Below are positions 23,533-39,579 of a DNA stretch of 52,560 nt, one piece after another. Every line of letters starts with the position of its first letter. Position 1 is the first letter of the stretch. The notes beneath the pieces are model-generated. The model made no database searches and was not told the origin of the DNA. It saw only the letters and a list, made by a program, of their open reading frames with translations. The stretch comes from Candidatus Moraniibacteriota bacterium (GTDB lineage Bacteria > Patescibacteriota > Minisyncoccia > Moranbacterales > UBA2206). A program made the position numbers and the translations under genes. The stretch spans positions 1 through 52,560 of the forward strand of contig JAUXSK010000009.1 of assembly GCA_030679995.1 (NCBI GenBank), written 5' to 3'.

Positions 23533-23787
23533 ATGCATAGGCGCATTAAAAGTAAAATAATGGATAGAGAAATTGGAAAAGATGATAGCTTCTCCGCTTG
23601 GTCATTTGCCTGGGAATTAGGGTATTCGATCGCCGTGCCGCTAGCGGCATTGGCTTTTGCTGGAAGATTTCTGGATAAGAAACTGGGAACATCGCCGTTT
23701 TTACTGCTTGCCTGTATCCTCGTTTCAATCGCCATTTCGGCATATATAGTCTACAAAAAAACAACCGATATAATGAACAGAAAATAA
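23533..23787 (+). CDS. AtpZ/AtpI-like small membrane protein of the ATP synthase operon
   Basis: 84 aa with two TM helices (G..IAVPL..LAFAGRFLDKKLGTSP). The TAATG junction overlaps the start of atpB. Confidence 0.55.
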   Translation: MHRRIKSKIMDREIGKDDSFSAWSFAWELGYSIAVPLAALAFAGRFLDKKLGTSPFLLLACILVSIAISAYIVYKKTTDIMNRK

Positions 23788-24539
23788 TGGAAATTTCACT
23801 CGCACCAGAAATAATATTCCATATCGGATCTTTTCCGGTTACCAACTCGCTCTTGATGACGCTTATTTTAAGCGCGATTATTATCCTGACCTCCCTCAAT
23901 CTCCGAAACAAGCTGAAGCTTGTGCCCAAAGGCTTCCAAAACATATTCGAATATGTTATGGAAGCTTTTTTGGATCTGATCGACAGCGTTACGCAGAACC
24001 GCGAGCAGACCCGCAAATTCTTTCCGCTGGTGGTGACTATTTTCCTGTTCGTGATACTTTCCAATTGGATCGAACTTGTTCCCGGATTGGGAACTATCGG
24101 CATCAATGAAACGCATCATGGCAAGACGATCCTAGTCCCTTTCATCAGGAGCGCTTCGGCTGATTTGAATATGACATTGGCGATCGCGCTTATCTCGGTT
24201 TTCACGATCCAATTTATGGGCATCGCCGCTATCGGAGCGGCCAGATATGCGGGTAAGTTTTTCGTGAATCCTTTGCGCAAACCCTATTTTATCGGAACTT
24301 TCGTGGGAATTTTGGAACTGATCAGTGAGGTCGCTAAAATAATCTCTTTTTCCTTCCGTCTTTTCGGGAATATTTTTGCCGGCGAAGTGCTTCTGATCGT
24401 TATGTTGAATTTGGTCCCATATTTCGTGCCGCTGCCTTTTTTGTTCCTGGAATTGTTTGTCGGATTCGTACAGGCGCTGGTTTTCGCGATGTTGACGCTG
24501 GTATTTTTAAAGATGGCGGTGACGGCGCATGAACATTAA
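23787..24539 (+). CDS. atpB: F0F1 ATP synthase subunit a
   Basis: Contains FSFRLFGNIFAGEVLL, which includes the essential Arg. Confidence 0.92.
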   Translation: MEISLAPEIIFHIGSFPVTNSLLMTLILSAIIILTSLNLRNKLKLVPKGFQNIFEYVMEAFLDLIDSVTQNREQTRKFFPLVVTIFLFVILSNWIELVPGLGTIGINETHHGKTILVPFIRSASADLNMTLAIALISVFTIQFMGIAAIGAARYAGKFFVNPLRKPYFIGTFVGILELISEVAKIISFSFRLFGNIFAGEVLLIVMLNLVPYFVPLPFLFLELFVGFVQALVFAMLTLVFLKMAVTAHEH

Positions 24540-24587
24540 TGCGTGATTGCTGGACGGCTATATCGCTGAATCATTGGAATGATTTAA

Positions 24588-24914
<327 letters not shown>

Positions 24915-25002
24915 TCAGCGGACAGGGAGCAATGAACAGCGAACATATTTCCTGTTCATTGATCTTTGCACATTGGTTATCGTAAAAATTAACTACAAAA
25001 AA

Positions 25003-25488
25003 ATGGAATTATTGGATAATTTGGGAATCGATGGAAGGTTGTTGCTGGCACAGCTCATCAACTTCGTAATCCTGCTGGCCGTGCTGTATAAATTCGCTTA
25101 CGGTCCGGTTTTGAAAATTTTGGAAGAGCGGACGAAAAAAATCGAGAATGGTCTGAAAGATGCCGAAGAATCCCACAAGAAATTGGCTGAAATTTCTGAA
25201 AAGGAGGCGGCGGTCTTGGTGGAGGCTAGGAAAAATGCCCAGCAAATAATTAAAAAATCGGAAGAAGCTGCCGTCAAGAATGCGGAAGAAATCATAGTGT
25301 TGGCTAAGGACCAATCAATCAAGATGCTGGAGCAAGCCAAAAAGCAGATTGAGCAGGAAAAGGAGAAGATCTTGGCAGAAGTGAAAACTGAAGTGGCCGA
25401 ATTGATAATGGTCGCGACCGGGAAGATTATCGATGAGAAATTGGATAGTGAAAAAGATCGTGATTTAATCAATCGAAGTATAAAATAA
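25003..25488 (+). CDS. atpF: F0F1 ATP synthase subunit b
   Basis: The ATG is at MELLDNLGIDG. One N-terminal TM helix is followed by a long charged helix. The TTG at 24973 is less likely to be the start. Confidence 0.85.
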   Translation: MELLDNLGIDGRLLLAQLINFVILLAVLYKFAYGPVLKILEERTKKIENGLKDAEESHKKLAEISEKEAAVLVEARKNAQQIIKKSEEAAVKNAEEIIVLAKDQSIKMLEQAKKQIEQEKEKILAEVKTEVAELIMVATGKIIDEKLDSEKDRDLINRSIK

Positions 25489-25889
25489 TGCGCTTGTCAG
25501 TCAATCAGTATGCGAAAGCCTTGTACGCTTCAGTCAAGGACAAATCCCAAGGCGATATCGGCTTGGTGGTGGCGAATTTGCTGAATCTTTTGCGAAAAAA
25601 TGGACAGATGAAATCAGCTGGGAAAATCATCGATAATTTCTCAGTCATTTGGAATAAGGAAAACGGGATCGTCGAAGCGGAAATAACCAGTCGGGAGGCG
25701 CTGGATAAAGCGTCGCAAGACGGAATCAAGGAATTCATAGCCGGAAAATATGCGGCCAAGGAGGTGATAGTCAGCAATATTGTCGATGAGGATATCCGAG
25801 GCGGAATAATAATCAGGATCGGGGACGAATTGATAGACGCTAGCGTGCGGAGAAGATTGACTGACCTGGGTAAAAGTTTGGGAGCTTAA
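25488..25889 (+). CDS. atpH: F0F1 ATP synthase subunit delta (short)
   Basis: 133 aa. The C-terminus has the OSCP signature GGIIIRIGDELIDASVRRRL. Confidence 0.8.
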   Translation: MRLSVNQYAKALYASVKDKSQGDIGLVVANLLNLLRKNGQMKSAGKIIDNFSVIWNKENGIVEAEITSREALDKASQDGIKEFIAGKYAAKEVIVSNIVDEDIRGGIIIRIGDELIDASVRRRLTDLGKSLGA

Positions 25890-25949
25890 GAATTTCCAGC
25901 AATCAAATCATCTGTTAAGTCATTATTTTAAAATAATTTAAATAAATTT

Positions 25950-27461
25950 ATGAATACGAAGGATTATATCGTCGATCAGCTGAAAAAACAATTGGAAAAT
26001 TTTGAAACTGCGACACAGACTGAGAAAATCGGGACGGTAGTGGAGGTCGGGGATGGCGTGGCGAAAATTTCCGGGTTGTCCGATGCGATGGCCAGTGAAA
26101 TGTTGGATTTCGGCAACGGGATTTTCGGTGTGGCTCTCAATCTAGAGGAAGGCGCCGTGGGTGCGATGATTCTGGGATCTTATGAAGGTATCAAGGAAGG
26201 GGATATCGTCAAATCGACCGGCAAAATCTTGTCGGTGCCGGTGGGCGATATGATGATCGGGCGGGTAGTGAGCCCGTTAGGAGAGGCGATTGATGGCAAA
26301 GGCGAAATAAAATCCGAAACGTATTATCCGGTGGAAAAAATCGCGCCGGGAGTTATAACCAGAAAATCGGTAAGCGTACCGGTGCAAACCGGTATTAAAG
26401 CGATTGACGCGGTTATTCCGGTCGGACGCGGCCAGCGGGAGCTTATTATCGGGGACAGACAGACTGGTAAAACAGCGGTGGCGGTCGATGCGATTATCAA
26501 TCAGAAGGGACAAGATTTGATTTGTATTTATGTGGCTATCGGTCAAAAGGAATCCAAGATCGCGAGGATCGTGGCGGAGCTGGAAAAACGCGGGGCGATG
26601 GAACATACGATTATGGTCGTGGCCGGCGCCTCTGATCCAGCGGCGCTATCATTCATCTCTCCATATGCCGGTTGCGCGATGGGGGAATATTTTTTAGACA
26701 AAGGCAAGGATGTTTTGATAATCTATGATGATCTGAGCAAACACGCTTGGGCCTATCGCCAAATTTCCTTGATTTTGCGCCGGCCACCGGGACGCGAAGC
26801 TTATCCGGGGGATATTTTTTATCTGCATTCAAGACTTCTGGAAAGATCGGCGCGCCTGAATGAAGATTTTGGCGGCGGCTCAATTACGGCTTTGCCGATC
26901 ATTGAAACGCAAGCGGGCGATGTTTCAGCTTATATCCCGACCAATGTCATTTCCATTACGGATGGCCAGATATATTTGGAAACAGATCTTTTCTATAAAG
27001 GCATCCGCCCGGCGCTGAATGTCGGTTTGTCCGTTTCCCGCGTAGGTTCCGCGGCGCAGACCAAGGCGATGAAAAAAGTGGCTGGAAAGTTGCGGCTTGA
27101 TCTGGCGCAGTTCCGTGAGTTGGAAGCGTTCGCGCAATTTGGATCGGATTTGGATGAAAATACCCGCCGCCAAATCGAGCGTGGAAGAAGGACGGTTGAA
27201 ATTTTGAAACAGGACCAATATGAGCCGATGGCGATGCAAAACCAAGTCGCTATCCTCTATGCCTTGACCAATGGATTTTTGGATGATGTAGCGGTGGAAA
27301 AAGTGAAATTTTGGGAAAATGATTTCCATAAGTATCTGAAATCCAATTCGAAAGAGATGTTGGAAATGATCGCGGAAAAGAAAGAGTTGAACGAGGAAGT
27401 GGTGGCGGCTTTGGAAAAAGCGATCAAGGAATTCAAGGAAATTTATCAGAACGGGAATTAA
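25950..27461 (+). CDS. atpA: F0F1 ATP synthase subunit alpha
   Basis: Walker A GDRQTGKT. Strong full-length alpha-subunit similarity. Confidence 0.97.
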
Positions 27462-27574
27462 CAATTTTAAATTATAAATTTGAAATTTTAAATCAATATT
27501 TAATTTCCAAATGAATAAATTTTTACTCATTCAGAATTCATTTTAAATTTAAAATTGAAAATTTAAAATTAATC
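27461..27574 (+). repeat. AT-rich intergenic element, copy 1 (atpA-atpG spacer)
   Basis: 114 nt. The first ~53 nt differ at 4 positions from 30132 onward. The last 38 nt (27537-27574) are identical to 30216-30253. Termini are aattttaaatt / aaatttaaaatt. Confidence 0.9.
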
Positions 27575-27578
27575 AGTT

Positions 27579-28532
27579 ATGGCATCAACACGCGACATCA
27601 GACGACGCATAAAATCCGTCGGCAATACCCAAAAAATAACCCGAGCGATGGAGATGGTTTCGGCTGCCAAGATGAGGAAATCGGTAGCGAGCGTTTTGGC
27701 GATCCGGCCGTATGCCCATGCCGCTTGGAGCGTCCTGACTAATTTGTCGCGGGCTTTTGCGGAATATAGGTCGGGGCTTTTGGAAGTGCGCAAAGTGAGA
27801 CGGGTCCTGGCTATCGCCATAACGTCGAACAAAGGTTTATGCGGGGCTTTCAACGCGCAACTTTCCAAGAAAATACGTGAAGAAATAGCCCATCCGGAAA
27901 ATTTGATGATCAATAGGATCGGAGATGAAAAAATCATATCCAAAGCTGAGGAAATTGAGATTGATTTTGTTACGATCGGCAAGAAAGGCGAGAATACGGT
28001 GCGCAAAGCCGGAAAAAATATCATAGCTTCTTTCAACGACCTGACGTATTTGCCTAAAATTGACGATGTGCGTATCGTAAGTAAAGTGGTGATGGATGAC
28101 TACTTGGCTAAAAAATATGACAAGGTGGTTATTTTTTATACTGATTATGTTTCGGCGATGAACCAGCAGACGAAAGTCCGCCAGCTTTTGCCAATTTCGA
28201 AGATAGACTTGGAAAAACAAATCGCTGCAATGGATGTTCTGGCGAAAGAATATGGACTGGACGAACCTGTGCGGGAATATAAGGTTGAGCCGGCTCCGGA
28301 AACCGTTTTGGAATATGTTTTGCCACGGTTGATCGAAATGCAGATTTATCATGCGATTTTGGAATCCAATGCTTCCAAGGAATCGGCGCGGATGATGGCG
28401 ATGCGCGGAGCGACGGAAGCTGCCGGAGAGATGCGGGATGATCTGACATTTGCCTATAATCAGATCCGCCAGATGAAGATTACGCAAGAAATAGCGGAGA
28501 TTTCAGCTGGACGGGCGGCGCTGGAAAGTTAA
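27579..28532 (+). CDS. atpG: F0F1 ATP synthase subunit gamma
   Basis: N-terminus RDIRRRIKSVGNTQKITRAMEMVSAAK and C-terminus ITQEIAEISAG. Confidence 0.93.
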   Translation: MASTRDIRRRIKSVGNTQKITRAMEMVSAAKMRKSVASVLAIRPYAHAAWSVLTNLSRAFAEYRSGLLEVRKVRRVLAIAITSNKGLCGAFNAQLSKKIREEIAHPENLMINRIGDEKIISKAEEIEIDFVTIGKKGENTVRKAGKNIIASFNDLTYLPKIDDVRIVSKVVMDDYLAKKYDKVVIFYTDYVSAMNQQTKVRQLLPISKIDLEKQIAAMDVLAKEYGLDEPVREYKVEPAPETVLEYVLPRLIEMQIYHAILESNASKESARMMAMRGATEAAGEMRDDLTFAYNQIRQMKITQEIAEISAGRAALES

Positions 28533-28727
28533 ATTATAAATATGCCCAAGGCGGGAAGGAATTGCACAAGATATGGATGCGGGAACGAAGCAGGCGCTCC
28601 CAATGTCGGGAAAGAAAAATTTAGGAGCGGAAACTTTAAATAATCAAAAGCATAGATCGCAGCAAATATCGGTTTTATCGCATTGGTAGCGGATGTTCGT
28701 GCAATAATTTTTTTAAATAATTTTTAG

Positions 28728-30116
<1,389 letters not shown>

Positions 30117-30131
30117 AACATTTTTTATTTC

Positions 30132-30253
30132 ACAATTTTAAATTAAAAATTTGAAATTTTAAATAAATATTTAATTCCTAAATGTTTAAATGATTAAAAA
30201 TTTATTCATTGGGATTTCATTTTAAATTTAAAATTGAAAATTTAAAATTAATC
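30132..30253 (+). repeat. AT-rich intergenic element, copy 2 (atpD-atpC spacer)
   Basis: 122 nt, homologous to 27461-27574 and ending 2 nt before the atpC ATG. Confidence 0.9.
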
Positions 30254-30255
30254 TT

Positions 30256-30693
30256 ATGGGTTCACGAATAAAATTTAAGATTGTCACTCCCGAAAAAACC
30301 GTTTTTGAAGCGGAGGTTTTCCAGGCGACTTTGCCGGTGACGGACGGGGAAGTCACTATCCTGCCTAATCATAGATCATATATCGCTTCGCTTAAGGCCG
30401 GGGAAGTCTGCTTGAAGTCTGATGCGGGAGATGTTTGTTTGGCTGTTTCGGGCGGATTTATCGAATTCAACCAGAATAATCTGGTGGTTTTGGCTGATAC
30501 GGCTGAACGGGCTGAAGAGATCGATTTGGCGCGAGCTGAGGAAGCGAGAATACGGGCGGAAGAGTTAAAGAAAGAAAAAATCGAAATGGATGATAGTGAA
30601 TATGCGCGCGTGGCGGCGGCCGTCGAAAAAGAGATGACTAGGATAAGGGTCGCTAAAAAACATCGCACGGTAACTGGTATGCATCTTGACTAA
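30256..30693 (+). CDS. atpC: F0F1 ATP synthase subunit epsilon
   Basis: 145 aa. The N-terminal beta-sandwich (KFKIVTPEK...) and the C-terminal helical hairpin are present. Confidence 0.9.
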   Translation: MGSRIKFKIVTPEKTVFEAEVFQATLPVTDGEVTILPNHRSYIASLKAGEVCLKSDAGDVCLAVSGGFIEFNQNNLVVLADTAERAEEIDLARAEEARIRAEELKKEKIEMDDSEYARVAAAVEKEMTRIRVAKKHRTVTGMHLD

Positions 30694-30720: not shown

Positions 30721-31254
30721 ATGGCTTTTATTAAATTATTAAAAATATTATTTTTTGGTCCGAAGGTCACTGAATCGGAATCCGGATTGTCTGGACCCAA
30801 GGATCAAGAAATTCAAAATATCGGTGAAGAAATAAAGAAAGAGGTAGAACGTCTTTACGGCGGGCGTTCTTTACGTATCCGCGCCGTGGATGGCGGATCA
30901 ACCAATGCTGAGGAGATCGAACTGACCGCTTTGCTTAATGCCTACTATGATATCGACAGGTTTGGTTTGAGTTTTGTAGCTTCGCCACGTCATGCCGATA
31001 TGCTGTTCGTAACCGGACCGGTCACGAGAAACCTTGAGGCGGCAGTCAAGAAAACTTATCAGGCAGCCCCGGAGCCTTGCATCGTAGTTGCGATCGGGGA
31101 CGGAGCCTGTACGGGCGGCATCTGGAATGATTCGTACGCGGTAGTCGGATCTGTAGATAAAGTTATCCCGGTACATATCCGGATTCCAGGCGATCCGCCA
31201 ACCCCGACAGAAATCTTAAAGGGGGTGCTTGGCGCGCTTCGCGGTAAAAAATAA
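30721..31254 (+). CDS. NuoB/HycG/HyfI-like small subunit, degenerate (Fe-S ligands mostly lost)
   Basis: Contains FVASPRHADMLFVTGPVT, GDGACTGG and IPGDPPTP. Family similarity is clear, but the Cys ligands are replaced (see findings). Confidence 0.85.
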   Translation: MAFIKLLKILFFGPKVTESESGLSGPKDQEIQNIGEEIKKEVERLYGGRSLRIRAVDGGSTNAEEIELTALLNAYYDIDRFGLSFVASPRHADMLFVTGPVTRNLEAAVKKTYQAAPEPCIVVAIGDGACTGGIWNDSYAVVGSVDKVIPVHIRIPGDPPTPTEILKGVLGALRGKK

Positions 31255-31265
31255 ATAGCAATACG

Positions 31266-33260
31266 ATGGAAAACTTTATTATTTATGGGGTTTATATTTA
31301 TTTGACTGGAATGCTGGTTTCGGCGGGTATGTCCCTTCTTAGGAATCATTTCCGTTTCGCAAACGCAATTCTGTTTTTATCCAATTTGGCCGGATTTTCA
31401 GCTATGGTCGCATATCTGGCGAATTTTCCCGGCAGGGAATTGGTGATTTTGCAGACTGGATTTTTTTTCGACTTGAAACTGTCGTTGGATTACCTGTCTT
31501 CGATTTTTTTACTTCTGACTAGCGGAATTTCCGGGCTAGTTGTCGTTTATAGCGCGGAATACCTCGATCGTTATCGGAAAACATATGATATCCAAAGCGT
31601 CCAATCGCTTATGGGAATTTTTATTTTTGGAATGGTCGGCGTCCTTTTGTCTGCCAATGTCGTCGGATTTATGGTTTTTTGGGAAATTATGTCGTTCGCT
31701 TCTTTTTTTCTGGTGATGTCCGATCGGACAAAAGAATCATTGCATGCCGCCTTTATTTATTTTGTGATGACCCACTTGGGGGCAGGAGCGATTTTAGGCG
31801 GATTTTTGATTTTAAGCGGAGGTTCGCTGGGTTTTGAAATCAGCGGAATCGCCGCCGCTTCGCGAAACATCCCGCCTGATTTTCTTACGGTAGCGTTCTT
31901 GCTGTTCTTTTTTGGGTTTGGATCCAAAGCGGGCCTTATCCCGTTCCATATCTGGCTGCCGGAAGCTCATCCGCAGGCACCGACGAATATTTCCGCCCTG
32001 ATGTCCGGATTGATGTTAAAAATAGCGGTGTATGGTTTTTTGAAAACCGTTATGATGTTTTTCCATATCCCGATCTGGGCGGCTTTGCTGGTAATATCGC
32101 TGGGAATCATTTCAGCGTTACTAGGTGCGTTGTATGCGGTCGTGGAGAAAGATATTAAAAAGGCTTTCGCTTATTCCAGTATTGAAAATATGGGTATTAT
32201 TTTTTTGATGCTAGGTATGGCGATGTGCGTTATGGCCAAAAGGACGGCTGGGGAAATCCCTTTGGCAGCTATCCTGCTTGTCACTTATGCGATTTTTCAC
32301 GCGATCAACCACGCCATATTCAAGACAGGCCTGTTTTTATCCAGCGGGGTCATTATTAATAGGACGCATTCCAAAAGTTTGGATATGATGGGCGGTCTTG
32401 CCAAGGCGATGCCGATCTTCTCCTTCATTTTCTTGATTATCATATTAGCTTCAGCTGCATTGCCTCCGTTCGGAACTTTTTATGGGGAATGGGGCTTTAT
32501 CCGGGCGCTTATTGATTTGTTGCAAATTTCCGGAACGAAATTCGCATCCGTTACCGTCTTCTTGACCGTCTTGGCGTTATTCGCCCTTGTGAGCGGACTG
32601 GCTACTTTCGCGATGATAAAAATCTATGCCATTTCTATGCTTGGCCTTCCGAAACTGGAAAGGCATTCCGACGAAAAGACAGACGACGGATTGTTCGTTA
32701 TTCCTTTGGCGGTTATCGGTTTTGTGATGGTCGCTCTGGGAATTTTCGCGAAAAATATCTTAGGCTGGCTTTCTGGCCATATCGGGGAAGTATTTTTCGG
32801 ATATGCGGGGGATATTCCGGATGTCCAAATATCATCAGCGCAGGTCTTTGTCATAGTTGCCGCTTTCCTGCTCTTATCCGCGGCCGTATATAAACTCCTA
32901 TCCGGCAATGGAAGAAAGGAACGGGAATATGATACTTGGAATTGCGGACAACCGATCGACGCCAGTATGGAATATACGGCAACCGCTTTCTCCGCCCCGA
33001 TACGGTTTTTCTTTCTGCCTCTTTTGCAGCGCAGAAAAACCATCATATCCGTACCGGTCGTAAATACGAATCCTTGGATCTCAAAGAAATCTTTTTCTTT
33101 AGACATCACTTCCGTTTGGTATGACAGGCTATATAAGCCGGCGGCAAAATATGTCTTCTGGCTGGCTGAAAAAGTGAGATTGGTCCATACTGGACGGATC
33201 CAATATTATCTATTGCTATTGCTTTCCGCCATAATTATCACATTAATGATAGCCCTATGA
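31266..33260 (+). CDS. HyfB/HycC/NuoL-like antiporter-type membrane subunit
   Basis: 664 aa. Contains WEIMS and GFGSKAGLIPFHIWLPEAHPQAPTNISALMSG, the Proton_antipo_M core. Confidence 0.85.
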   Translation: MENFIIYGVYIYLTGMLVSAGMSLLRNHFRFANAILFLSNLAGFSAMVAYLANFPGRELVILQTGFFFDLKLSLDYLSSIFLLLTSGISGLVVVYSAEYLDRYRKTYDIQSVQSLMGIFIFGMVGVLLSANVVGFMVFWEIMSFASFFLVMSDRTKESLHAAFIYFVMTHLGAGAILGGFLILSGGSLGFEISGIAAASRNIPPDFLTVAFLLFFFGFGSKAGLIPFHIWLPEAHPQAPTNISALMSGLMLKIAVYGFLKTVMMFFHIPIWAALLVISLGIISALLGALYAVVEKDIKKAFAYSSIENMGIIFLMLGMAMCVMAKRTAGEIPLAAILLVTYAIFHAINHAIFKTGLFLSSGVIINRTHSKSLDMMGGLAKAMPIFSFIFLIIILASAALPPFGTFYGEWGFIRALIDLLQISGTKFASVTVFLTVLALFALVSGLATFAMIKIYAISMLGLPKLERHSDEKTDDGLFVIPLAVIGFVMVALGIFAKNILGWLSGHIGEVFFGYAGDIPDVQISSAQVFVIVAAFLLLSAAVYKLLSGNGRKEREYDTWNCGQPIDASMEYTATAFSAPIRFFFLPLLQRRKTIISVPVVNTNPWISKKSFSLDITSVWYDRLYKPAAKYVFWLAEKVRLVHTGRIQYYLLLLLSAIIITLMIAL

Positions 33261-34849
33261 TGCAGATAACAAATATTATCATCCAATTTATTTTCGTTGC
33301 CGCGGTGGCGCCGTTCGCGGCTGGGTTCGTGCGTCTGGTAAAAGCCAGATTGCAAGGAAGAAAAGGAGCTTCGCCATTTTTGGAATACGCGGCTTTGGCG
33401 ACGTTATTGAAAAAGGAAATGGTCATTCCAAGTGCCAGCTCCTGGGTGTTCCGCCTGGTTCCGTTCGTCGTATTGGCTAGCTCGCTTTGCTTCGCGTTTC
33501 TGGTCCCGACAATTTTCCATCTCGGCAGCCTGGCGGGGATGAGTGATTTTTTGGTAATCGCGGGGATTCTGATGACTGGATCGGTTTTCTTGGTGTTAGG
33601 TGGTCTTGATCCGGGCAGCGCATTTGGCGGAATGGGGGCGAGCCGCGAAATGACCATCGCCGCTTTGCTTGAGCCGACGATGATTATGGTTTTCGCCGCA
33701 TTCGGATTCGTAACGAATTCATTTACGATCGACGGGATGATGGTCGAAGGCATCATTATGACTAACCCCTTCCTGCTTCTGTCCGTGGTCGGACTGGTTA
33801 TGCTGGCCTTAGGAGAGAACGCGCGTTATCCAGTGGATAATCCGGCGACCCATCTCGAATTGACTATGGTGCATGAAGCGATGATCCTTGAATATTCCGG
33901 TCCGTACCTGGCGATGTTGGAATATGCTTCAGCGATCAAATTGACAGTCTTCGCTTTCCTGGTCAGCAATCTGATTTTTCCTGGATCATTGCAAATTGCC
34001 GGAGCGGGAATTCCCGCTGTTATATCTGGTTTGTTATTGGCCGTGTTAAAAATCACGATCGTGATGGCTCTCTTGGCCCTGCTTGAATCGACGATTGTCA
34101 AGATGCGTTTCTATCGGATGCAGGAATATGTGTCAGTTTCTTTTTTCGCCGCTTTTTTCGGTATGGCGGCGGCCGTCCTGTCCCAGCAGGTCGATTTTCT
34201 AGTCAATTATACCGTTTTTTTCGTATCCCTCACAATCTTATTTACCGTTTTCGTTTTTGGAAACCTGAGGATTACGCCCGTTTTGCGTTATTATGTCTTT
34301 TCTTCTCTGGCCATTGCCGGCATTGCGGCTTCATTGGGATTTTCTGATATCGGGGAGGCAAAGCATATGTTTTTCTTCGCGCTGGTGACTGTGTTAGTGA
34401 AAGCCGTTTGCGTGCCGCTGGTCATTATGTATGCGGTCAACCGCTATGAGAAAATCAATCAATTCCAGACATTTTTACGGCCGGCTTCCAGTTATTTATT
34501 ATCCGGCGTGATCATCGCGATCGCATTTTTCGTAACAAGCCGGATTTCCTTGATCGAGGGGCCGGTCTGGCCGGGAATCTTGTTCGCGTCTATCGCGCTT
34601 ATAATGCTGGGCATTATGAAAATGGTCATTATGCGTAATATCTATTCTCAGATAATCGGACTTTTGGTTTTGGAAAACGGGCTGGCCTTATTCACTTTAG
34701 TCACCGTCAAGACGCTGCCTGTCGTAATCGAATTGGGGATTTTCGCGATTACGCTGGCCAGCGTGTTTATTTTGGCGAAATTAAGTACTAACATCAAGGA
34801 GTTGTATGGTTCGACGGATACCGAAGAACTGCGCAATTTAGTCGACTAA
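33257..34849 (+). CDS. Fusion of a HycD/HyfC (NuoH-like) subunit and a HyfE-like subunit
   Basis: The N-terminal ~310 aa carry ENARYPVDNPATHLELTMVHEAMILEYSG (HycD signature). The C-terminal ~215 aa carry GLLVLENGLALF ... ELYGSTDTEELRNL (HyfE-like). The ATGA junction overlaps the upstream gene. Confidence 0.8.
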   Translation: MMQITNIIIQFIFVAAVAPFAAGFVRLVKARLQGRKGASPFLEYAALATLLKKEMVIPSASSWVFRLVPFVVLASSLCFAFLVPTIFHLGSLAGMSDFLVIAGILMTGSVFLVLGGLDPGSAFGGMGASREMTIAALLEPTMIMVFAAFGFVTNSFTIDGMMVEGIIMTNPFLLLSVVGLVMLALGENARYPVDNPATHLELTMVHEAMILEYSGPYLAMLEYASAIKLTVFAFLVSNLIFPGSLQIAGAGIPAVISGLLLAVLKITIVMALLALLESTIVKMRFYRMQEYVSVSFFAAFFGMAAAVLSQQVDFLVNYTVFFVSLTILFTVFVFGNLRITPVLRYYVFSSLAIAGIAASLGFSDIGEAKHMFFFALVTVLVKAVCVPLVIMYAVNRYEKINQFQTFLRPASSYLLSGVIIAIAFFVTSRISLIEGPVWPGILFASIALIMLGIMKMVIMRNIYSQIIGLLVLENGLALFTLVTVKTLPVVIELGIFAITLASVFILAKLSTNIKELYGSTDTEELRNLVD

Positions 34850-34853
34850 TCAT

Positions 34854-36308
34854 ATGATGGCGATAATCATAACAATTTTTCTATTTGGCGCGCTGTTGCC
34901 GCAATTTTTAAAAGACGAAAAGCACATCCGCCGGGGCGCCGTTTGGGCGGCGTCCGCTGGGGGATTGGCGGTCTCCGTTTTTGCTTTGCCGGTGCTTTTC
35001 GGGAAAGAACCGTCTTGGTCCGATAGTTGGTGGATGATCGATCCTTTCTCGGCATTGATGGCATCCCTGATAGTTTTCACCTATATGGCGGCGATAGTCG
35101 TAAGTTATCGGTATATCGGGCATGAATACCAAGATGGGATAGTGGGCGTTTCCCAAGTCAGGATGTATTTTTCCCTGATCAGTTTATTCGAGCTTTCAAT
35201 GTTAGCCGTAGTTTTTGCTGATAACGCGATGTTGATGTGGTTGTCGCTTGAAGGTACGACGCTCTTCTCGGCTTTCCTAGTCGGATTATATAAGAAGAAG
35301 ACCTCCGTCGAAGCGGCTTGGAAATATGTCATACTTTGTTCGACGGGCATCACGCTGGGACTTGCCGGCGTGTTATTGATGAATTACGCAGGTGATTCGC
35401 TTAATTTGGATGATAATTTTTTCTCGTTGCTGTTTCTAACTGAGAATGCCCATCTTCTTCCTCCGGAAATTATCAAGTGGGCTTTTGTGTTCCTATTTGT
35501 GGGTTTCGGCACCAAGGTCGGTTTGGTTCCGATGCACGCTTGGCTGCCGGATGCGCACAGCAAGGCGCCATCGCCGATTTCAGCCCTGTTTTCAGGAGTG
35601 TTATTGAATGTCGCCCTTTATGTCATTATTCGGTTCAAACATATCGCGGACAGCGCGCTGGGCGGTTCGGAGTGGACGAATGGGTTCTTCTTGGTCTTTG
35701 GTTTGCTATCGATCGCTTTGCCGGCTTTGGCGTTGCTTATCCAGGATAATTACAAGCGTATGCTGGCCTATTCCAGTATCGAACATATGGGATTGATGTC
35801 TTTGGCGATCGCTTTTTCCCCATTAGGTCTGGTAGCTGCGTTCATCCATATGATCGGGCATACGTTTACCAAGTCGGCTTTGTTTTTCGGAGCCGGCGAA
35901 TTTTTACTTAAATGGAAAACCACCAAAATCAGCAAAATCGGTTCCACGATTAACCATGCCCCGTATACCAGCGTGCTTTTTTTAGTCGGAATTTTGGCGA
36001 TTATCGCCGCTCCTCCGTCAGTGATTTTTTTTAGCGAATTCATTCTTTTCTCCCGGATGTTTTCCACACATTGGATTTTGGCGATCTGCACTTTGATCGC
36101 TATGAGTCTCGTCGCATTTTCAATGCTGCATCTGGCAATCAGGCTGGTTTTTGAAGGGGAGAGCGAGGAAAAAATGGAGAAAGAAAAATGGAACAGCACC
36201 CATACTGTCATATCGATCGAGTTGGTCTTGGCATTCGGACTGTCTTTCGTCCTGATTTCCCCGCCAGGCCTTGCCTTTATCGAGTCGCTGGTTAAAATCG
36301 TCAATTAA
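34854..36308 (+). CDS. HyfF/NuoM-N-like antiporter-type membrane subunit
   Basis: 484 aa. Contains GFGTKVGLVPMHAWLPDAHSKAPSPISALFSG. Confidence 0.85.
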   Translation: MMAIIITIFLFGALLPQFLKDEKHIRRGAVWAASAGGLAVSVFALPVLFGKEPSWSDSWWMIDPFSALMASLIVFTYMAAIVVSYRYIGHEYQDGIVGVSQVRMYFSLISLFELSMLAVVFADNAMLMWLSLEGTTLFSAFLVGLYKKKTSVEAAWKYVILCSTGITLGLAGVLLMNYAGDSLNLDDNFFSLLFLTENAHLLPPEIIKWAFVFLFVGFGTKVGLVPMHAWLPDAHSKAPSPISALFSGVLLNVALYVIIRFKHIADSALGGSEWTNGFFLVFGLLSIALPALALLIQDNYKRMLAYSSIEHMGLMSLAIAFSPLGLVAAFIHMIGHTFTKSALFFGAGEFLLKWKTTKISKIGSTINHAPYTSVLFLVGILAIIAAPPSVIFFSEFILFSRMFSTHWILAICTLIAMSLVAFSMLHLAIRLVFEGESEEKMEKEKWNSTHTVISIELVLAFGLSFVLISPPGLAFIESLVKIVN

Positions 36309-36319
36309 ATTATATTCGT

Positions 36320-37879
36320 ATGAAAACAATCGAAATAATCGCCCGGTTTCCCAATTTGAAATTATCAAAGAATGCTGGCGGCATCATCGAAGCTTCCGCT
36401 GATCGCGATGATATCGCCGCCATCGCCACCGCGCTTGTGCAGGATCACAAGTTGCCATTGTCGCTGATGTTCGGAACCGATGACCGGGAAGAAAAAAAAT
36501 CCTTCGGCGTGCATACGGTTTTTTCCAATGATGCGGAACATGAGCGATTGGTCGTTTCGATCGAAGTGCCGGAGCAGGACGCGCAATATCCTTCGATTAC
36601 CGCTACGGTTATGGCGGCGCATTGGTATGAAAGATATCTGCGCGATATGTTCGGTATCGAACCGAAAGGCCATCCTGATTTGCGAAGGCTGGTACATCAT
36701 GAAAATGTTCCGGAGAATATATTCCCTTTGCGCAAAGATTTTGCCTGGAACGCGAAAATGGAATATGCGAATGTCGCGTATCCGATGCATCATGTCGCGG
36801 GAGAGGGGATATATGAAATCCCAGTCGGGCCGATCCATGCCGGCATTATCGAGCCTGGCCATTTCCGCTTCAATGTGGCCGGGGAGCGGATAATCACTTT
36901 GGAGGGGAAGCTGTTTTTTACGCATAAGGGGGTGGAGAAAATACTGGAAGGCAAAACCGTGGTTGAGGCGCTGCCTTTTATCGAACGGATTTCCGGCGAT
37001 ATGTCGTCCGCGCATGCCTTGGCGTTCGCCCAGTCGATCGAGGTTATTTCCGGATGTGAAATTCCGAGGCGGGCGAAAATGTTACGGACTTTGCTGCTTG
37101 AGTTGGAAAGAATGACGATGCATGTGCATGATTTGGGGAATATCGGCGGGATGGGGACGGGTTATAGTTTCATAGCGGCTAATTGTTTCAGGATCAAGGA
37201 ACGTCTGATGCGGCTCTCTGAAAAAATGACGGGAAACCGTTTTTGGCGGGGCGTAATCGTTCCAGGAGGGGTAGATAAGGACTTTGCTGCGGATGAATTG
37301 ATACACACCTGGTCGGTAGTAAAAAACGCCTATCAGGAAACGATGGAAATTATAAATACGGCTCTGGGGTCGGAAGGTTTTTTGGAACGTCTGCAAACGA
37401 CAGGCGTCTTGCCCAAGGAAGCGGCGGAGGCTTTCGGCGCGGTCGGCGTCGCAGCGCGCGCATCCGGAATTGATCGGGATGCGCGGCGGGATTATCCGTA
37501 CGCGGCTTATGCCGAATTCCCGGTGCCAGTCGTTATTGAATCGACGGGCGATGTGTATGCCAGATACAAAGTTCGAATCGAGGAATTAAAACAGTCTGTC
37601 GCTTTGGTTGAAAAGATAATTTCAAACTTGGAAGAAGGGGCGATTATGGTTGGATATGCGGTCAAAGACGGTTTTGGGCTGGGCTCGGTAGAATCATGGC
37701 GGGGAGAAATCTTATGCGCGGTCAGAATCAAAGATGGAAAGATAGACAGATGCTTCCCGCGTGATCCGTCTTTTTGCAATTGGGCGCTGTTCGGCATAAT
37801 CGGACCGGGCAATATCGTGCCGGATTTCCCGCTTTGCAATAAGTCGCTCAATCTGAGTTATTCAGGAACTGATCTGTAA
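36320..37879 (+). CDS. HycE/HyfG-like large subunit (NuoC-NuoD fusion) lacking Ni-Fe cysteines
   Basis: The NuoC-like part has HWYERYLRDMFGIEPKGHPDLRRL. The NuoD/large-subunit part has GPIHAGIIEPGHFRF...THKGVEK. The L1 and L2 Cys motifs are replaced (see findings). Confidence 0.85.
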   Translation: MKTIEIIARFPNLKLSKNAGGIIEASADRDDIAAIATALVQDHKLPLSLMFGTDDREEKKSFGVHTVFSNDAEHERLVVSIEVPEQDAQYPSITATVMAAHWYERYLRDMFGIEPKGHPDLRRLVHHENVPENIFPLRKDFAWNAKMEYANVAYPMHHVAGEGIYEIPVGPIHAGIIEPGHFRFNVAGERIITLEGKLFFTHKGVEKILEGKTVVEALPFIERISGDMSSAHALAFAQSIEVISGCEIPRRAKMLRTLLLELERMTMHVHDLGNIGGMGTGYSFIAANCFRIKERLMRLSEKMTGNRFWRGVIVPGGVDKDFAADELIHTWSVVKNAYQETMEIINTALGSEGFLERLQTTGVLPKEAAEAFGAVGVAARASGIDRDARRDYPYAAYAEFPVPVVIESTGDVYARYKVRIEELKQSVALVEKIISNLEEGAIMVGYAVKDGFGLGSVESWRGEILCAVRIKDGKIDRCFPRDPSFCNWALFGIIGPGNIVPDFPLCNKSLNLSYSGTDL

Positions 37880-37969
37880 ATTTTTGTAAAGATATTAGAT
37901 TTTTTGATAGTATTATACTTTTAACAGCTATTTTTTTATCCAATTTCATTATTTTCTGGAGGTGTACGC

Positions 37970-38523
37970 ATGTTTAATGCGGTTTTAACGTTAGAGGAAT
38001 ACAGATTGAAAAGCCGATTAAAAAAATAGGTATCCTCCGCAGGTTTAAAAACGGAGAGCTTAAGGGCTTAACCAATAATGGCGGCGTGGCTATCGTGTGT
38101 GGAGACGGTGATATCGATGTTATGGTCCATCATATGCGGGAAATAAGCCACCGTCCGCATTGTAAGTCTGATTTTGGCGGAGTATTACAACTCATTCAGA
38201 GTTTCAGGGGTTTTGATTGGTGATATGCCGCTTGTATGGCAGAAAATATAAAATTCGGTTTTTTCGCAAAGCGAACCAAAACCGTTTTTGCTTATTTTCA
38301 CTATCCTTGCGGAGCTGCTATCCATTATAAACATTCCTTCACGGATATCCTAAAAATAATGGCAGATTCTCCGGAAGTTCTTAAATTGTTGTACAATTTC
38401 GAGAAAATCTACGTCTTTTTATATGTAAGGCGTCTCAATAAAAATAATGAGGAAAGGCAGAATACATATCTTGTAGAAGCGGATATGTTGAAAAAAATCA
38501 TTCAAGACGGAAGATCGGGCTAG
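37970..38523 (+). pseudogene. Disrupted ORF: 19-codon ORF, then a -1 frame segment, then an in-frame TGA, then a 95-aa ORF. Product unknown.
   Basis: SD ggaggtg lies before the ATG at 37970, and this ORF stops at 38027-38029, directly after a run of 7 A. The -1 frame is open from 37978 to the TGA at 38221-38223. ORF 38236-38523 lies in that same frame. Confidence 0.3.
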
Positions 38524-38535
38524 ATTTAAGTGTAA

Positions 38536-38568
38536 AAAGGGAACTCATCGAGTTCCCTTTATTTTTTT
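38536..38568 (+). terminator. Intrinsic terminator
   Basis: Perfect stem aaagggaactc / gagttcccttt with loop atc, followed by attttttt. Confidence 0.85.
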
Positions 38569-38628
38569 AAGAAAAAGGCTATTTTGTGTGGTATAATAGA
38601 TGCAAAGCGTAATAACTAAAAAAACAAA

Positions 38629-39579
38629 ATGGAAAAGATGAAAAAAATAATCGTCGGCGCAGCTATTTTTATAGTCCTCCTGGCCGTGGTCGTAACGGTC
38701 TTGGGCGTAGCTAGGAAAAATACGCCGGGCGCAAATGATATGATGTGGAATGGAGCCGGGATGCTAGATGGCGGTTTTTCTTCCCCTTCAAGCGGTTCTG
38801 TGGCACCGATGCAAAAGGCGTTGCCTGAATCGGCTGGCATAAGATCGTCAGAACAGATGATGCTTGGCGCTGTTTCAGACAGTAGTTTGCCGGTGAATGA
38901 CAGAAAAGTCGTCAAGACAGGCGATTTGAATCTGAAAGTGGATGACGCTGACAGTGCGGCGGAAAAAATCACGCAAATCGCGAAAGGTAATGGCGGTGAT
39001 GTCCAGAACTCCAATTTTTATCAGAACGCTAAAAATATCAAAAGTGGAACGATAACGGTGAAAGTGCCGGTGGATAATTTTGAAAAGTCCTTTAATGAAA
39101 TCAAGGACATCGCGACATTGGTGGTACGCGAATCAGTTTCCGGACAGGATGTGACGGAGGAATATAGCGACCTGCAGGCGCAACTTAAAAACAAGCAAGC
39201 TGAAGAACAATCATTTTTAAAGATCCTGGATATGTCCGGTAAAATCAGCGATATTCTGGATGTGACCCGGGAACTTTCCAGGGTCAGGGGTGAAATCGAG
39301 ATGTTGCAGGGCCGCCTGAAATTTATGGACTCGCAAACGGATATGTCGTCCATAACTGCCAGTCTGACCGAGGATGCGGAAATAACCTTTTCGGATACTT
39401 GGCGTCCTTGGCAAGTGGTCAAGGAAACTTTCAACGCACTGTTCAAAGATATGCAGGGATTGATAAATTTCGCTATCGTCTTGGTCATTCGCATCATACC
39501 GGTCTTGGTCTTGTATGCGCTGGTTTTCATCTTGTTGTTTTTGGCTGGCCGGAAAATATACTCTAAAATAAAAAAATAA
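38629..39579 (+). CDS. DUF4349 domain-containing membrane protein
   Basis: N-terminal TM helix, then KVVKTGDLNLKVDDADSAAEKI..., a coiled-coil region and a C-terminal TM pair. This is the typical DUF4349 layout. Confidence 0.75.
   Translation: MEKMKKIIVGAAIFIVLLAVVVTVLGVARKNTPGANDMMWNGAGMLDGGFSSPSSGSVAPMQKALPESAGIRSSEQMMLGAVSDSSLPVNDRKVVKTGDLNLKVDDADSAAEKITQIAKGNGGDVQNSNFYQNAKNIKSGTITVKVPVDNFEKSFNEIKDIATLVVRESVSGQDVTEEYSDLQAQLKNKQAEEQSFLKILDMSGKISDILDVTRELSRVRGEIEMLQGRLKFMDSQTDMSSITASLTEDAEITFSDTWRPWQVVKETFNALFKDMQGLINFAIVLVIRIIPVLVLYALVFILLFLAGRKIYSKIKK

Follow-up and report, generated by a model that had tools for sequence, protein, structure and literature searches.

The ehr cluster and its large subunit

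The stretch of DNA analysed here (hereafter the window) comprises positions 1 to 52,560 of contig JAUXSK010000009.1 from a Candidatus Moraniibacteriota bacterium (GCA_030679995.1), a genome of the Parcubacteria within the candidate phyla radiation (CPR). The gene under study, located on the forward strand at positions 36320–37879, almost certainly specifies EhrL, which is the large subunit of an Ehr complex made up of five gene products. Ehr stands for energy-converting (Ech) hydrogenase-related; the complexes were named in Geobacter sulfurreducens and have been reported from Nitrospira, ammonia-oxidising archaea, Margulisbacteria and the CPR. All five genes of the cluster are co-directional on the forward strand, in the order EhrS-EhrA-EhrHK-EhrN-EhrL, and were assigned by their Pfam domains. 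EhrS, the NuoB/HycG-like small subunit (177 aa; 30721–31254; Oxidored_q6, E 3.5e-23), is followed by the HyfB/NuoL-like antiporter-like subunit EhrA (664 aa; 31266–33260; Proton_antipo_M and Proton_antipo_N), by EhrHK (33257–34849; NADHdh and Oxidored_q2), in which a HyfC/NuoH-like part (residues 8–294) is fused to a HyfE/NuoK-like part (residues 324–528), by the HyfF/NuoM/N-like antiporter-like subunit EhrN (484 aa; 34854–36308; Proton_antipo_M) and, as the last gene, by EhrL. Every one of the five products scored under all curated NCBIfam cut-offs; EhrA gave a full-length match to the HyfB model, below its cut-off, and residues 324–528 of EhrHK matched the HyfE model. In content, the cluster corresponds to a Hyf-type set from which the iron–sulfur (FeS) subunits HyfA and HyfH and the third antiporter-like subunit HyfD are missing. 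The fusion of the NuoH-like and HyfE/NuoK-like proteins (530 aa) was seen in the clade to which the window belongs (window clade), and two separate genes were present in relatives from Uhrbacteria, Peregrinibacteria and Acidobacteriota.

EhrL begins with an ATG start codon and has a length of 519 aa. Its Pfam domains were Complex1_30kDa (residues 27–145), NiFeSe_Hases (203–269) and Complex1_49kDa (286–444), and the protein belongs to the HycE/HyfG type of NuoC+NuoD fusions. The similarity to HycE and HyfG, which a first-pass annotation made from the letters of the sequence had pointed out, was borne out by the top match among solved structures, E. coli HycE (7z0s_E, E 5.7e-75, 32% identity, residues 47–518). 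EhrL was then aligned with 80 relatives from genomes and with E. coli HycE, HyfG and NuoCD using MAFFT. The N-terminal motif dRVCGICGFAH of HycE reads eRISGDMSSAH in EhrL, and the C-terminal motif SLDPCYSCTD reads SLNLSYSGTD, followed by one Leu and the stop codon. S225, M228, S513 and G516 of EhrL occupy the columns of HycE C241, C244, C531 and C534, so that the replacement of all four NiFe cysteines, claimed earlier, was confirmed. Among the relatives, Ser was found at the C241 column in 78/80, Met, Ala or Ser at C244, Ser at C531 in 78/80 and Gly at C534 in 79/80. Because the replacements are conserved across relatives, they constitute a family signature (ER[ILV]SGD...H and SLNLSYSG[TN]D[LM]-stop); neither chance nor an error in sequencing accounts for them. 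EhrL retains both the GP.H....EPGHFR loop and the H(K/R)G.EK motif. Compared with group 4 [NiFe]-hydrogenases, EhrL thus has the fold of the large subunit but neither of the two Cys motifs. The protein terminates at the column of HycE R537, the mature C-terminus of HycE after cleavage by HycI; no residue extends beyond this column in 81/81 sequences (EhrL and its 80 relatives), compared with 32 residues in HycE and HyfG.

EhrL was also found not to be of the complex I NuoD quinone type, in agreement with the first-pass annotation: at the quinone-site columns, the His of NuoD is replaced by Ile177 and the Tyr by Gly226. The AlphaFold2 model of EhrL (predicted local distance difference test, pLDDT, 81.6) had HycE 7z0s_E as its best match in the PDB, with a template modelling (TM) score of 0.88, and gave a TM score of 0.8 against E. 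coli NuoCD. Values of pLDDT below 50 were confined to residues 153–201 and 486–519, i.e. the invariant former active-site segments, which presumably need partner subunits for folding.

The closest homologues of EhrL were found in metagenome-assembled genomes of Parcubacteria (Moranbacteria, Falkowbacteria, Uhrbacteria) at 62–78% identity. Nearly all of them have 517–528 aa, most exactly 519. In 30 family members, the segments GPIHAGIIEPGHFRF and PRDPSFCNW...NKSLNLSYSG.D were invariant, and so were the loops through which the active site of related complexes is connected with the membrane arm. Residues of the proton path were examined in 66 EhrA and 75 EhrN sequences. In EhrA, the Glu of transmembrane helix (TM) 5, the Lys of TM7, the His/His/Lys of TM8 and the Glu of TM12 were each present in at least 64/66 sequences, save the first His of TM8 (column of NuoL H334; 51/66), and in EhrN the Glu of TM5 was present in 75/75, the Lys of TM7 in 74/75 and the Glu of TM12 in 74/75. 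Over both subunits, the TM5, TM7, TM8 and TM12 columns were conserved in no fewer than 95% of sequences, with the one His column of TM8 as the exception. Against the closest genome (L001; JBAYWF010000008), the ratio of nonsynonymous to synonymous substitutions (dN/dS) of the ehr genes was 0.08–0.09. The intact proton-path residues and the low dN/dS show that the complex is under purifying selection, and with five intact reading frames it is predicted to be functional. The alternative of a hydrogenase operon that is decaying and has become a relic without function, with which the loss of all catalytic ligands and a broken accessory gene next to the cluster (see below) would agree, is hardly credible: five frames are intact, dN/dS is about 0.09, the proton-path residues are conserved, the replacement residues are invariant, and 62–78% identity at a near-constant length of ~519 aa is maintained across classes of Parcubacteria. 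The dN/dS and conservation data effectively refuted this reading.

Cofactor ligands and position within the Ehr family

The small subunit had been called degenerate by the first-pass annotation, and its alignment supports this description. At the columns of HycG C45, C48, C51, C115 and C145, EhrS carries G, T, E, G and D. The replacements are conserved in the family, with E in 59/59, G in 59/59 and D in 51/59 of the CPR relatives. One non-canonical Cys, two residues past the C115 column, is mostly kept and has been lost in some members. No Fer4 or ferredoxin-like 2x[4Fe-4S] subunit was detected among the five ehr products or their neighbours, and EhrS carries no fused ferredoxin domain. Genes of the hyp and hycI type were absent among the window's open reading frames scanned with Pfam (mostly at least 110 aa) across 52.5 kb. 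With the NiFe and FeS ligands missing and no hyp or hycI gene among these reading frames, the earlier argument against hydrogenase chemistry was upheld. All recognisable redox ligands are gone, namely the NiFe cysteines, the [4Fe-4S] cysteines, the ferredoxin-like subunit and the His/Tyr quinone site; the complex can therefore neither make nor use H2, and electron transfer of the kind seen in related complexes is not possible for it.

CPR Ehr sequences have been described as a monophyletic subclade of Ehr references without metal-binding Cys, for which an interaction with H2 is unlikely (Jaffe 2020, PMC7304191). As Cys-less CPR Ehr has been published, the core finding is of an already known kind. 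The position of EhrL was further assessed by an exhaustive search of 50%-identity representatives, the best 150 of which were grouped by their Cys residues and C-terminal tail. About 100 were Cys-less with the signature ERxSGD...NLSYSGxDL-stop, 30 were Cys-containing and tail-less (ER.CG.C..SH ... ELCY.C.DR-stop) with 40–44% identity to EhrL, and 4 were HycE-like with tails of 29–33 residues. In Planctomycetota ('Ca. Wujingus') and Desulfotomaculum, these Cys-containing tail-less proteins bear the annotation of hydrogenase large subunits; the group is made up of P0123, P0124, P0130, P0139 and about 26 other representatives, and the metagenome locus L090 belongs to it as well. These 30 sequences bear on the C-terminus of EhrL. 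It had been stated that no tail is available to an endopeptidase, which is correct, but the missing tail is not diagnostic of lost maturation, since the Cys-containing relatives are equally tail-less, and its use as such a marker was rejected. The short C-terminus appears, from this distribution, to be ancestral to the branch and not a consequence of the loss of the metal site.

Metagenomes were scanned with a profile built from diverse large subunits of the Cys-less type, which yielded 80 loci; 79 of them encode a Cys-less large subunit with the ERxSGD / NLSYSGxDL signature. The small subunits of other Ehr complexes keep all four [4Fe-4S] cysteines in 57 of the 62 assessable cases, either in a short NuoB-like protein or in a Fer4+NuoB fusion; the five FeS-less small subunits all belong to the window-type clade or to the related L089-type clade. 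In L090, the nearest Cys-containing relative, a 2x Fer4 + NuoB fusion with all ligands is encoded (GSCNGCE / GACACSGG / GCPP). The window's cluster has a Cys-less group-4-like large subunit which clusters with those of other Ehr complexes, NuoB-, NuoH- and HyfE-like genes and two antiporter-like genes, as is characteristic of Ehr; the ligands of an N2-type [4Fe-4S] cluster in the small subunit, typical of most members, are missing in the window clade (TEGD-type). Judged by these residues, the window clade is a doubly cofactor-free (NiFe and FeS) variant of Ehr, not a non-member. No description of an FeS-less Ehr small subunit was found in the searchable literature, although the defining papers (Coppi 2005, Marreiros 2013) might hold one.

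Trees were calculated by neighbour joining (NJ) with bootstrap, without HydDB references and without full MbhL, MbxL/MbsL and EchE sequences. The phylogeny asked for in the first-pass annotation placed EhrL in the window-type clade (bootstrap 99–100%), which lies inside the Cys-less group and apart from the Cys-containing sequences. All FeS-less sequences grouped weakly (36%), and the placement of the window clade relative to other Ehr or to the Cys-containing tail-less group had bootstrap values below 40%. Cofactor-free clusters with 53–62% identity were also found in Acidobacteriota (Vicinamibacterales; L054-L062, L068, L070, L171). Their sequences are nested within the window-type clade (bootstrap 94–98%), which implies lateral transfer between CPR and Acidobacteriota.

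It was considered whether the complex is still redox-coupled, with an unlinked partner such as formate dehydrogenase (FDH) delivering electrons to a cofactor held by ligands other than Cys, or to a substrate in the former NiFe pocket. The FeS cluster is kept in most Ehr complexes, often with a ferredoxin domain, the non-canonical Cys of EhrS near the C115 column is mostly kept, and a redox complex of FDH and Ehr has been put forward for Margulisbacteria, whose small subunit carries a fused NuoI-like domain (PMC6349859). In the window clade, however, conserved residues that are not ligands stand in place of all four/five FeS ligands and of the four NiFe ligands, a Fer4 subunit is missing, the single retained Cys of EhrS is lost in some members, and no oxidoreductase partner was found in the window or beside 69 CPR clusters. 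Redox coupling of this kind is therefore regarded as highly improbable.

ATP synthase and carbonic anhydrase neighbours

Directly upstream of ehrS, the window contains a complete F1Fo ATP synthase operon in the order atpBEFHAGDC (23787–30693, forward strand). The genes atpB (23787–24539), atpF (24973–25488), atpH (25488–25889), atpA (25950–27461), atpG (27579–28532), atpD (28740–30116) and atpC (30256–30693) were assigned with Pfam, and atpE (24687–24914) was identified via its translation. The gap between atpC and ehrS amounts to 27 nt and contains no terminator-like site. The longest-stem terminator candidate between atpB and a downstream DUF4349 gene is a hairpin at 38536–38570 on the forward strand (11-bp stem, T-run tail), which is likely to mark the end of the atp-ehr transcription unit. 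The 27-nt gap and the lack of a terminator-like site before 38536 point to an apparent single atp-ehr transcription unit. The DUF4349 gene itself (38629–39579) lies past the operon terminator; a homologue was observed downstream of ehrL in about a dozen relatives (e.g. L001, L004, L005, L013, L014, L019, L020, L025), and this proximity may represent conserved synteny or association. Aminoacyl-tRNA synthetases and other housekeeping genes make up the remainder of the window.

The linkage was counted over 54 CPR loci that extend 1.5 kb or further upstream of ehrS. A same-strand atpC upstream of ehrS was present in 40/54, in 23 of them at a distance of no more than 450 bp, and 14 CPR loci had no atpC within about 4 kb upstream. 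Linkage was also found in the metagenome loci L096, L097 and L124, and the ehr genes precede the atp genes in L009 and L097. In L009 (Moraniibacteriota), the order is atpB atpF ehrSAHKNL atpB atpF atpH atpA atpG atpD atpC, i.e. the ehr cluster is situated between an extra atpB-atpF pair and a complete atp operon, a different way of joining both systems. The ehr clusters of Acidobacteriota are not linked to atp genes and lie far from them. The c subunit of the window's ATP synthase contains the motif GPGIGIG... and the carboxylate Glu; the Gln and Ser/Thr residues of Na+-binding c rings are absent, for which reason protons are the likely coupling ion.

Across CPR loci, the median identity to the window was 72% for EhrS and 64% for EhrL, compared with 59% for AtpC and 55% for AtpG. 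Between the window and L001, the ehr cassette (30721–38600) showed synonymous divergence (dS) from 1.5 to saturated at 68–83% amino acid identity, whereas its flanks (atp genes, leucyl-tRNA synthetase, GGDEF and DUF4349 genes) showed dS of 0.56–0.88 at 84–99% amino acid identity. The deeper divergence of the ehr genes indicates that the cassette was replaced via recombination or lateral transfer in one of the lineages. These data also bear on a role of Ehr as a physical or regulatory partner of F1Fo without chemistry of its own, for instance as a component of a supercomplex, an assembly factor or a device for local proton delivery. Such a role would fit the 27-nt gap in the operon, the atp-ehr order in 40/54 CPR loci and the upstream position of ehr in L009 and L097. 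It is improbable all the same, given that Acidobacteriota relatives with 53–62% identity carry the cluster alone and far from atp, that 14 CPR loci lack a nearby upstream atpC, and that exchange of the cassette took place without the atp genes (dS 1.5 to saturated vs. 0.56–0.88).

Genes for carbonic anhydrases (CAs) were counted in the 50 CPR loci in which the cluster has 1.3 kb or more of sequence on each side. Exactly one kind of CA was found beside the cluster in 31/50 loci (CsoSCA-like in 16, gamma-CA in 5, and a third kind, termed family 2, in 10), two kinds at one locus were found in 0/50, and every copy was located within about one gene of the ehr cluster. The CsoSCA-like beta-CAs have about 340–400 aa with invariant Cys-x-Asp-x-Arg ... 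His ... Cys residues, and their profile matched solved CsoSCA with E 2e-14. The gamma-CA neighbours are of the Cam/CcmM type (E 4e-36 vs. CcmM and 1e-32 vs. Cam). The proteins of family 2 are small (about 200 aa) and share the invariant residues Cys..Asp and His-x-Pro-Cys. The family had no match in Pfam, NCBIfam or PDB sequences and only 8 homologues in a large database, and comparison with the CsoSCA-like family using hhalign gave a probability of 1%. The top PDB fold matches of its AlphaFold2 model were mostly beta-CAs. From the motif positions and these weak Foldseek matches, family 2 is tentatively regarded as beta-CA-like. With three unrelated CA kinds that exclude one another, the pattern resembles non-orthologous displacement within a single functional slot.

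The window itself contains a broken copy of family 2 at 37970–38523 on the forward strand, recognised by six-frame reading and inspection of the DNA (jackhmmer E 3e-31 and 3e-15 for two fragments). Its ATG at 37970 stands behind a GGAGG sequence and the HYPCGAA motif is kept, but the reading frame is interrupted by a frameshift at or near the A7 run 38020–38026 and by an in-frame TGA at 38221–38223. The copy is either a pseudogene or the result of an assembly error; the independent contig L088 stops short of it. Intact family 2 genes follow EhrL in L002 and L014 and stand between atpC and EhrS in 8 loci, most of them labelled Uhrbacteria; in L052 the gene is downstream of EhrL on the opposite strand, and it is absent from L001.

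The genes next to CA-less clusters are housekeeping genes (M17 peptidase, sigma-70, thioredoxin-reductase-like, UvrD, FecR). The small open reading frame after the Acidobacteriota cluster encodes an unrelated membrane protein. Outside the CPR, the CsoSCA-like gene is the last gene of a cluster of DabA and four antiporter-like genes in Nitrosomonas (L085, 520–11053), and in Thiobacillus (L086, 4480–21059) it follows cbbL-cbbS-cbbQ-cbbO at 2 kb from a cluster of DabA and antiporter-like genes. The short CsoSCA-like CA of Nitrosomonas and Thiobacillus has about 350 aa, without the N-terminal domain of carboxysomal CsoSCA, and belongs to a family of about 1,275 members. The non-CPR, FeS-less locus L089 (688–18777) has the order SulP-Ehr, followed by DabA-DabB-SulP on the opposite strand. 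The FeS-containing loci L100 and L103 show the order Ehr-SulP-CsoSCA-like, L155 shows Ehr-gammaCA, and SulP adjoins three more Ehr clusters (L149, L150, L159). Genes for CAs and inorganic carbon are enriched next to the window clade and also occur next to other Ehr clusters. In the searchable literature, no description was found that connects Ehr, or the hydrogenase-like complexes of CPR bacteria, with CAs or with the atp operon. The Ehr identity, including that of CPR members, is known; not met there were the FeS-less small subunit, the wiring to atp and CA genes, and the location of non-CPR Ehr clusters next to DabAB, SulP and CA genes.

Proposed functional model and comparison with known systems

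Ehr complexes have been called function-unknown (PMC10284858, PMC10432482), and we tentatively favour a redox-free proton translocator, linked to the proton motive force (pmf), with a cytoplasmic input of CO2/HCO3-/H+. In this model, the ehr complex would move protons across the membrane without redox input, and a docked soluble CA would supply or catalyse the interconversion of CO2, HCO3- and H+ on the cytoplasmic side of Ehr. By analogy to DAB and NDH-1MS, the antiporter-like channel would render CO2 hydration vectorial. Two directions are conceivable: the gradient made by the ATPase could be consumed (ATP to pmf to bicarbonate trapping), or a CO2/HCO3- disequilibrium could generate pmf and feed the ATP synthase (CO2/HCO3- disequilibrium to pmf to ATP).

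Several points weigh against this model. That genes are neighbours does not demonstrate that their products are coupled, be it physically or mechanistically, and a CA, an ATPase and a proton translocator could equally form a set for pH homeostasis. No CA is encoded nearby in 19/50 CPR loci or in any of the Acidobacteriota loci, so that a CA gene in cis cannot be a strict requirement. In the window, the CA-like gene is itself disrupted by a frameshift and a nonsense codon. The assignment of family 2 as a CA is weak, as its Foldseek matches have E values of 4e-3 or worse, its model has a pLDDT of 72 and the catalytic Arg is missing. The poorly modelled former active-site segments of EhrL (pLDDT below 50) say nothing on a ligand there, and a concentration of bicarbonate has no clear use for a fermentative symbiont with little biosynthesis. 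Furthermore, we know of no experiment on any Ehr complex.

The main rival to the CO2/HCO3- model is a role in ion or pH homeostasis, in which the complex would act as an Mrp-like secondary transporter or gated proton conduit, exchanging or leaking H+ (possibly vs. Na+/K+) on the gradient made by the ATPase. EhrL and EhrS would then be a structural plug or a pH sensor, and the CA neighbours would reflect shared buffering of cytoplasmic pH without direct coupling. The intact antiporter-like subunits with their homology to MrpA/MrpD, the loss of the redox ligands, the operon shared with the ATP synthase, and the conservation of the complex without a CA neighbour in 19 CPR loci and in Acidobacteriota all accord with such a transporter. 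Equivalents of MrpB, E, F and G are absent, however, the peripheral-arm loops and the replaced active-site motifs are conserved more strongly than a plug would require, three unrelated CA types in the same slot and the DabAB/SulP neighbours point to inorganic carbon, and the c subunit, by its motif, lacks a Na+ site. On balance, the Mrp-like role is rated as rather unlikely.

The CO2/HCO3- model can be extended to the whole locus. CPR bacteria keep an ATP synthase and are mostly devoid of respiratory chains. It is conceivable, if doubtful, that bacteria without an electron transport chain combine cofactor-free Ehr, a soluble CA and F1Fo into a chemiosmotic unit that is self-contained and independent of respiration. 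Proton movement across the membrane would be coupled by Ehr to the hydration of CO2 or the dehydration of HCO3-, and either a disequilibrium (e.g. from fermentation or host CO2) would drive ATP synthesis, or ATP would be spent on trapping inorganic carbon. If true, this reading would extend to Ehr complexes generally, which are widespread (Geobacter, Nitrospira, ammonia-oxidising archaea, relatives of Cyanobacteria, Acidobacteriota, CPR). The wiring of the locus yields a first concrete, testable hypothesis on function for the clade and possibly for the whole family, i.e. proton translocation coupled to CO2/HCO3- chemistry. The locus also represents a natural complex-I-type proton-pumping membrane arm with a peripheral arm free of electron transfer, and such a system would be useful to study the coupling of peripheral-arm events to proton channels.

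With other Ehr complexes, the window's cluster shares the Cys-less group-4-like large subunit, the signature ERxSGD...H / NLSYSGxD(L)-stop and the gene set. It differs in that most others keep the [4Fe-4S] cysteines (57/62), many of them with a fused 2x[4Fe-4S] domain, neither of which is found in the window clade, and in being joined to the atp operon and flanked by CAs, features not found described for Ehr in the searchable literature. The subunits correspond one to one to HyfB, HyfC+HyfE, HyfF, HyfG and HyfI of the E. coli Hyf/Hyc systems (group 4a; formate hydrogenlyase structure 7z0s), whereas the NiFe and FeS cysteines, HyfA, HyfH/HycF, HyfD, the 32-residue tail, hycI and hyp are lacking. 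The Q-module of complex I (NuoCD/NuoB) resembles EhrL in its NuoC+NuoD fold and in the loss of the NiFe cysteines, but Ehr lacks the quinone His/Tyr (Ile and Gly instead), the N2 ligands and NuoA, J, I, E, F and G. Mrp is likewise redox-free and has MrpA/MrpD-type antiporter-like and NuoK-like subunits; the seven-subunit MrpA-G complex has no NuoB/C/D/H module, and Ehr in turn has no MrpB/E/F/G.

DAB (DabA/DabB) and NDH-1MS (CupA on NdhD3/F3) differ from Ehr in their CA partners, since no DabA or CupA homologue is encoded at ehr and CsoSCA-like beta, Cam/CcmM-like gamma or small beta-like proteins are found instead; moreover, Ehr possesses a full NuoB/C/D/H peripheral module, which DAB does not. 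DAB works without redox input (PMC13144422). Common to DAB, NDH-1MS and Ehr are the antiporter-like proton channels with conserved Lys/Glu. A soluble, Zn-type CA-like protein, encoded alongside the membrane subunits of DAB and NDH-1MS, has a possible counterpart in the CAs that flank 31/50 related CPR clusters, whereas the window has the broken family 2 copy. The CsoSCA-like family of CPR Ehr also ends the Nitrosomonas DabA cluster, and one Ehr cluster directly abuts dabAB.

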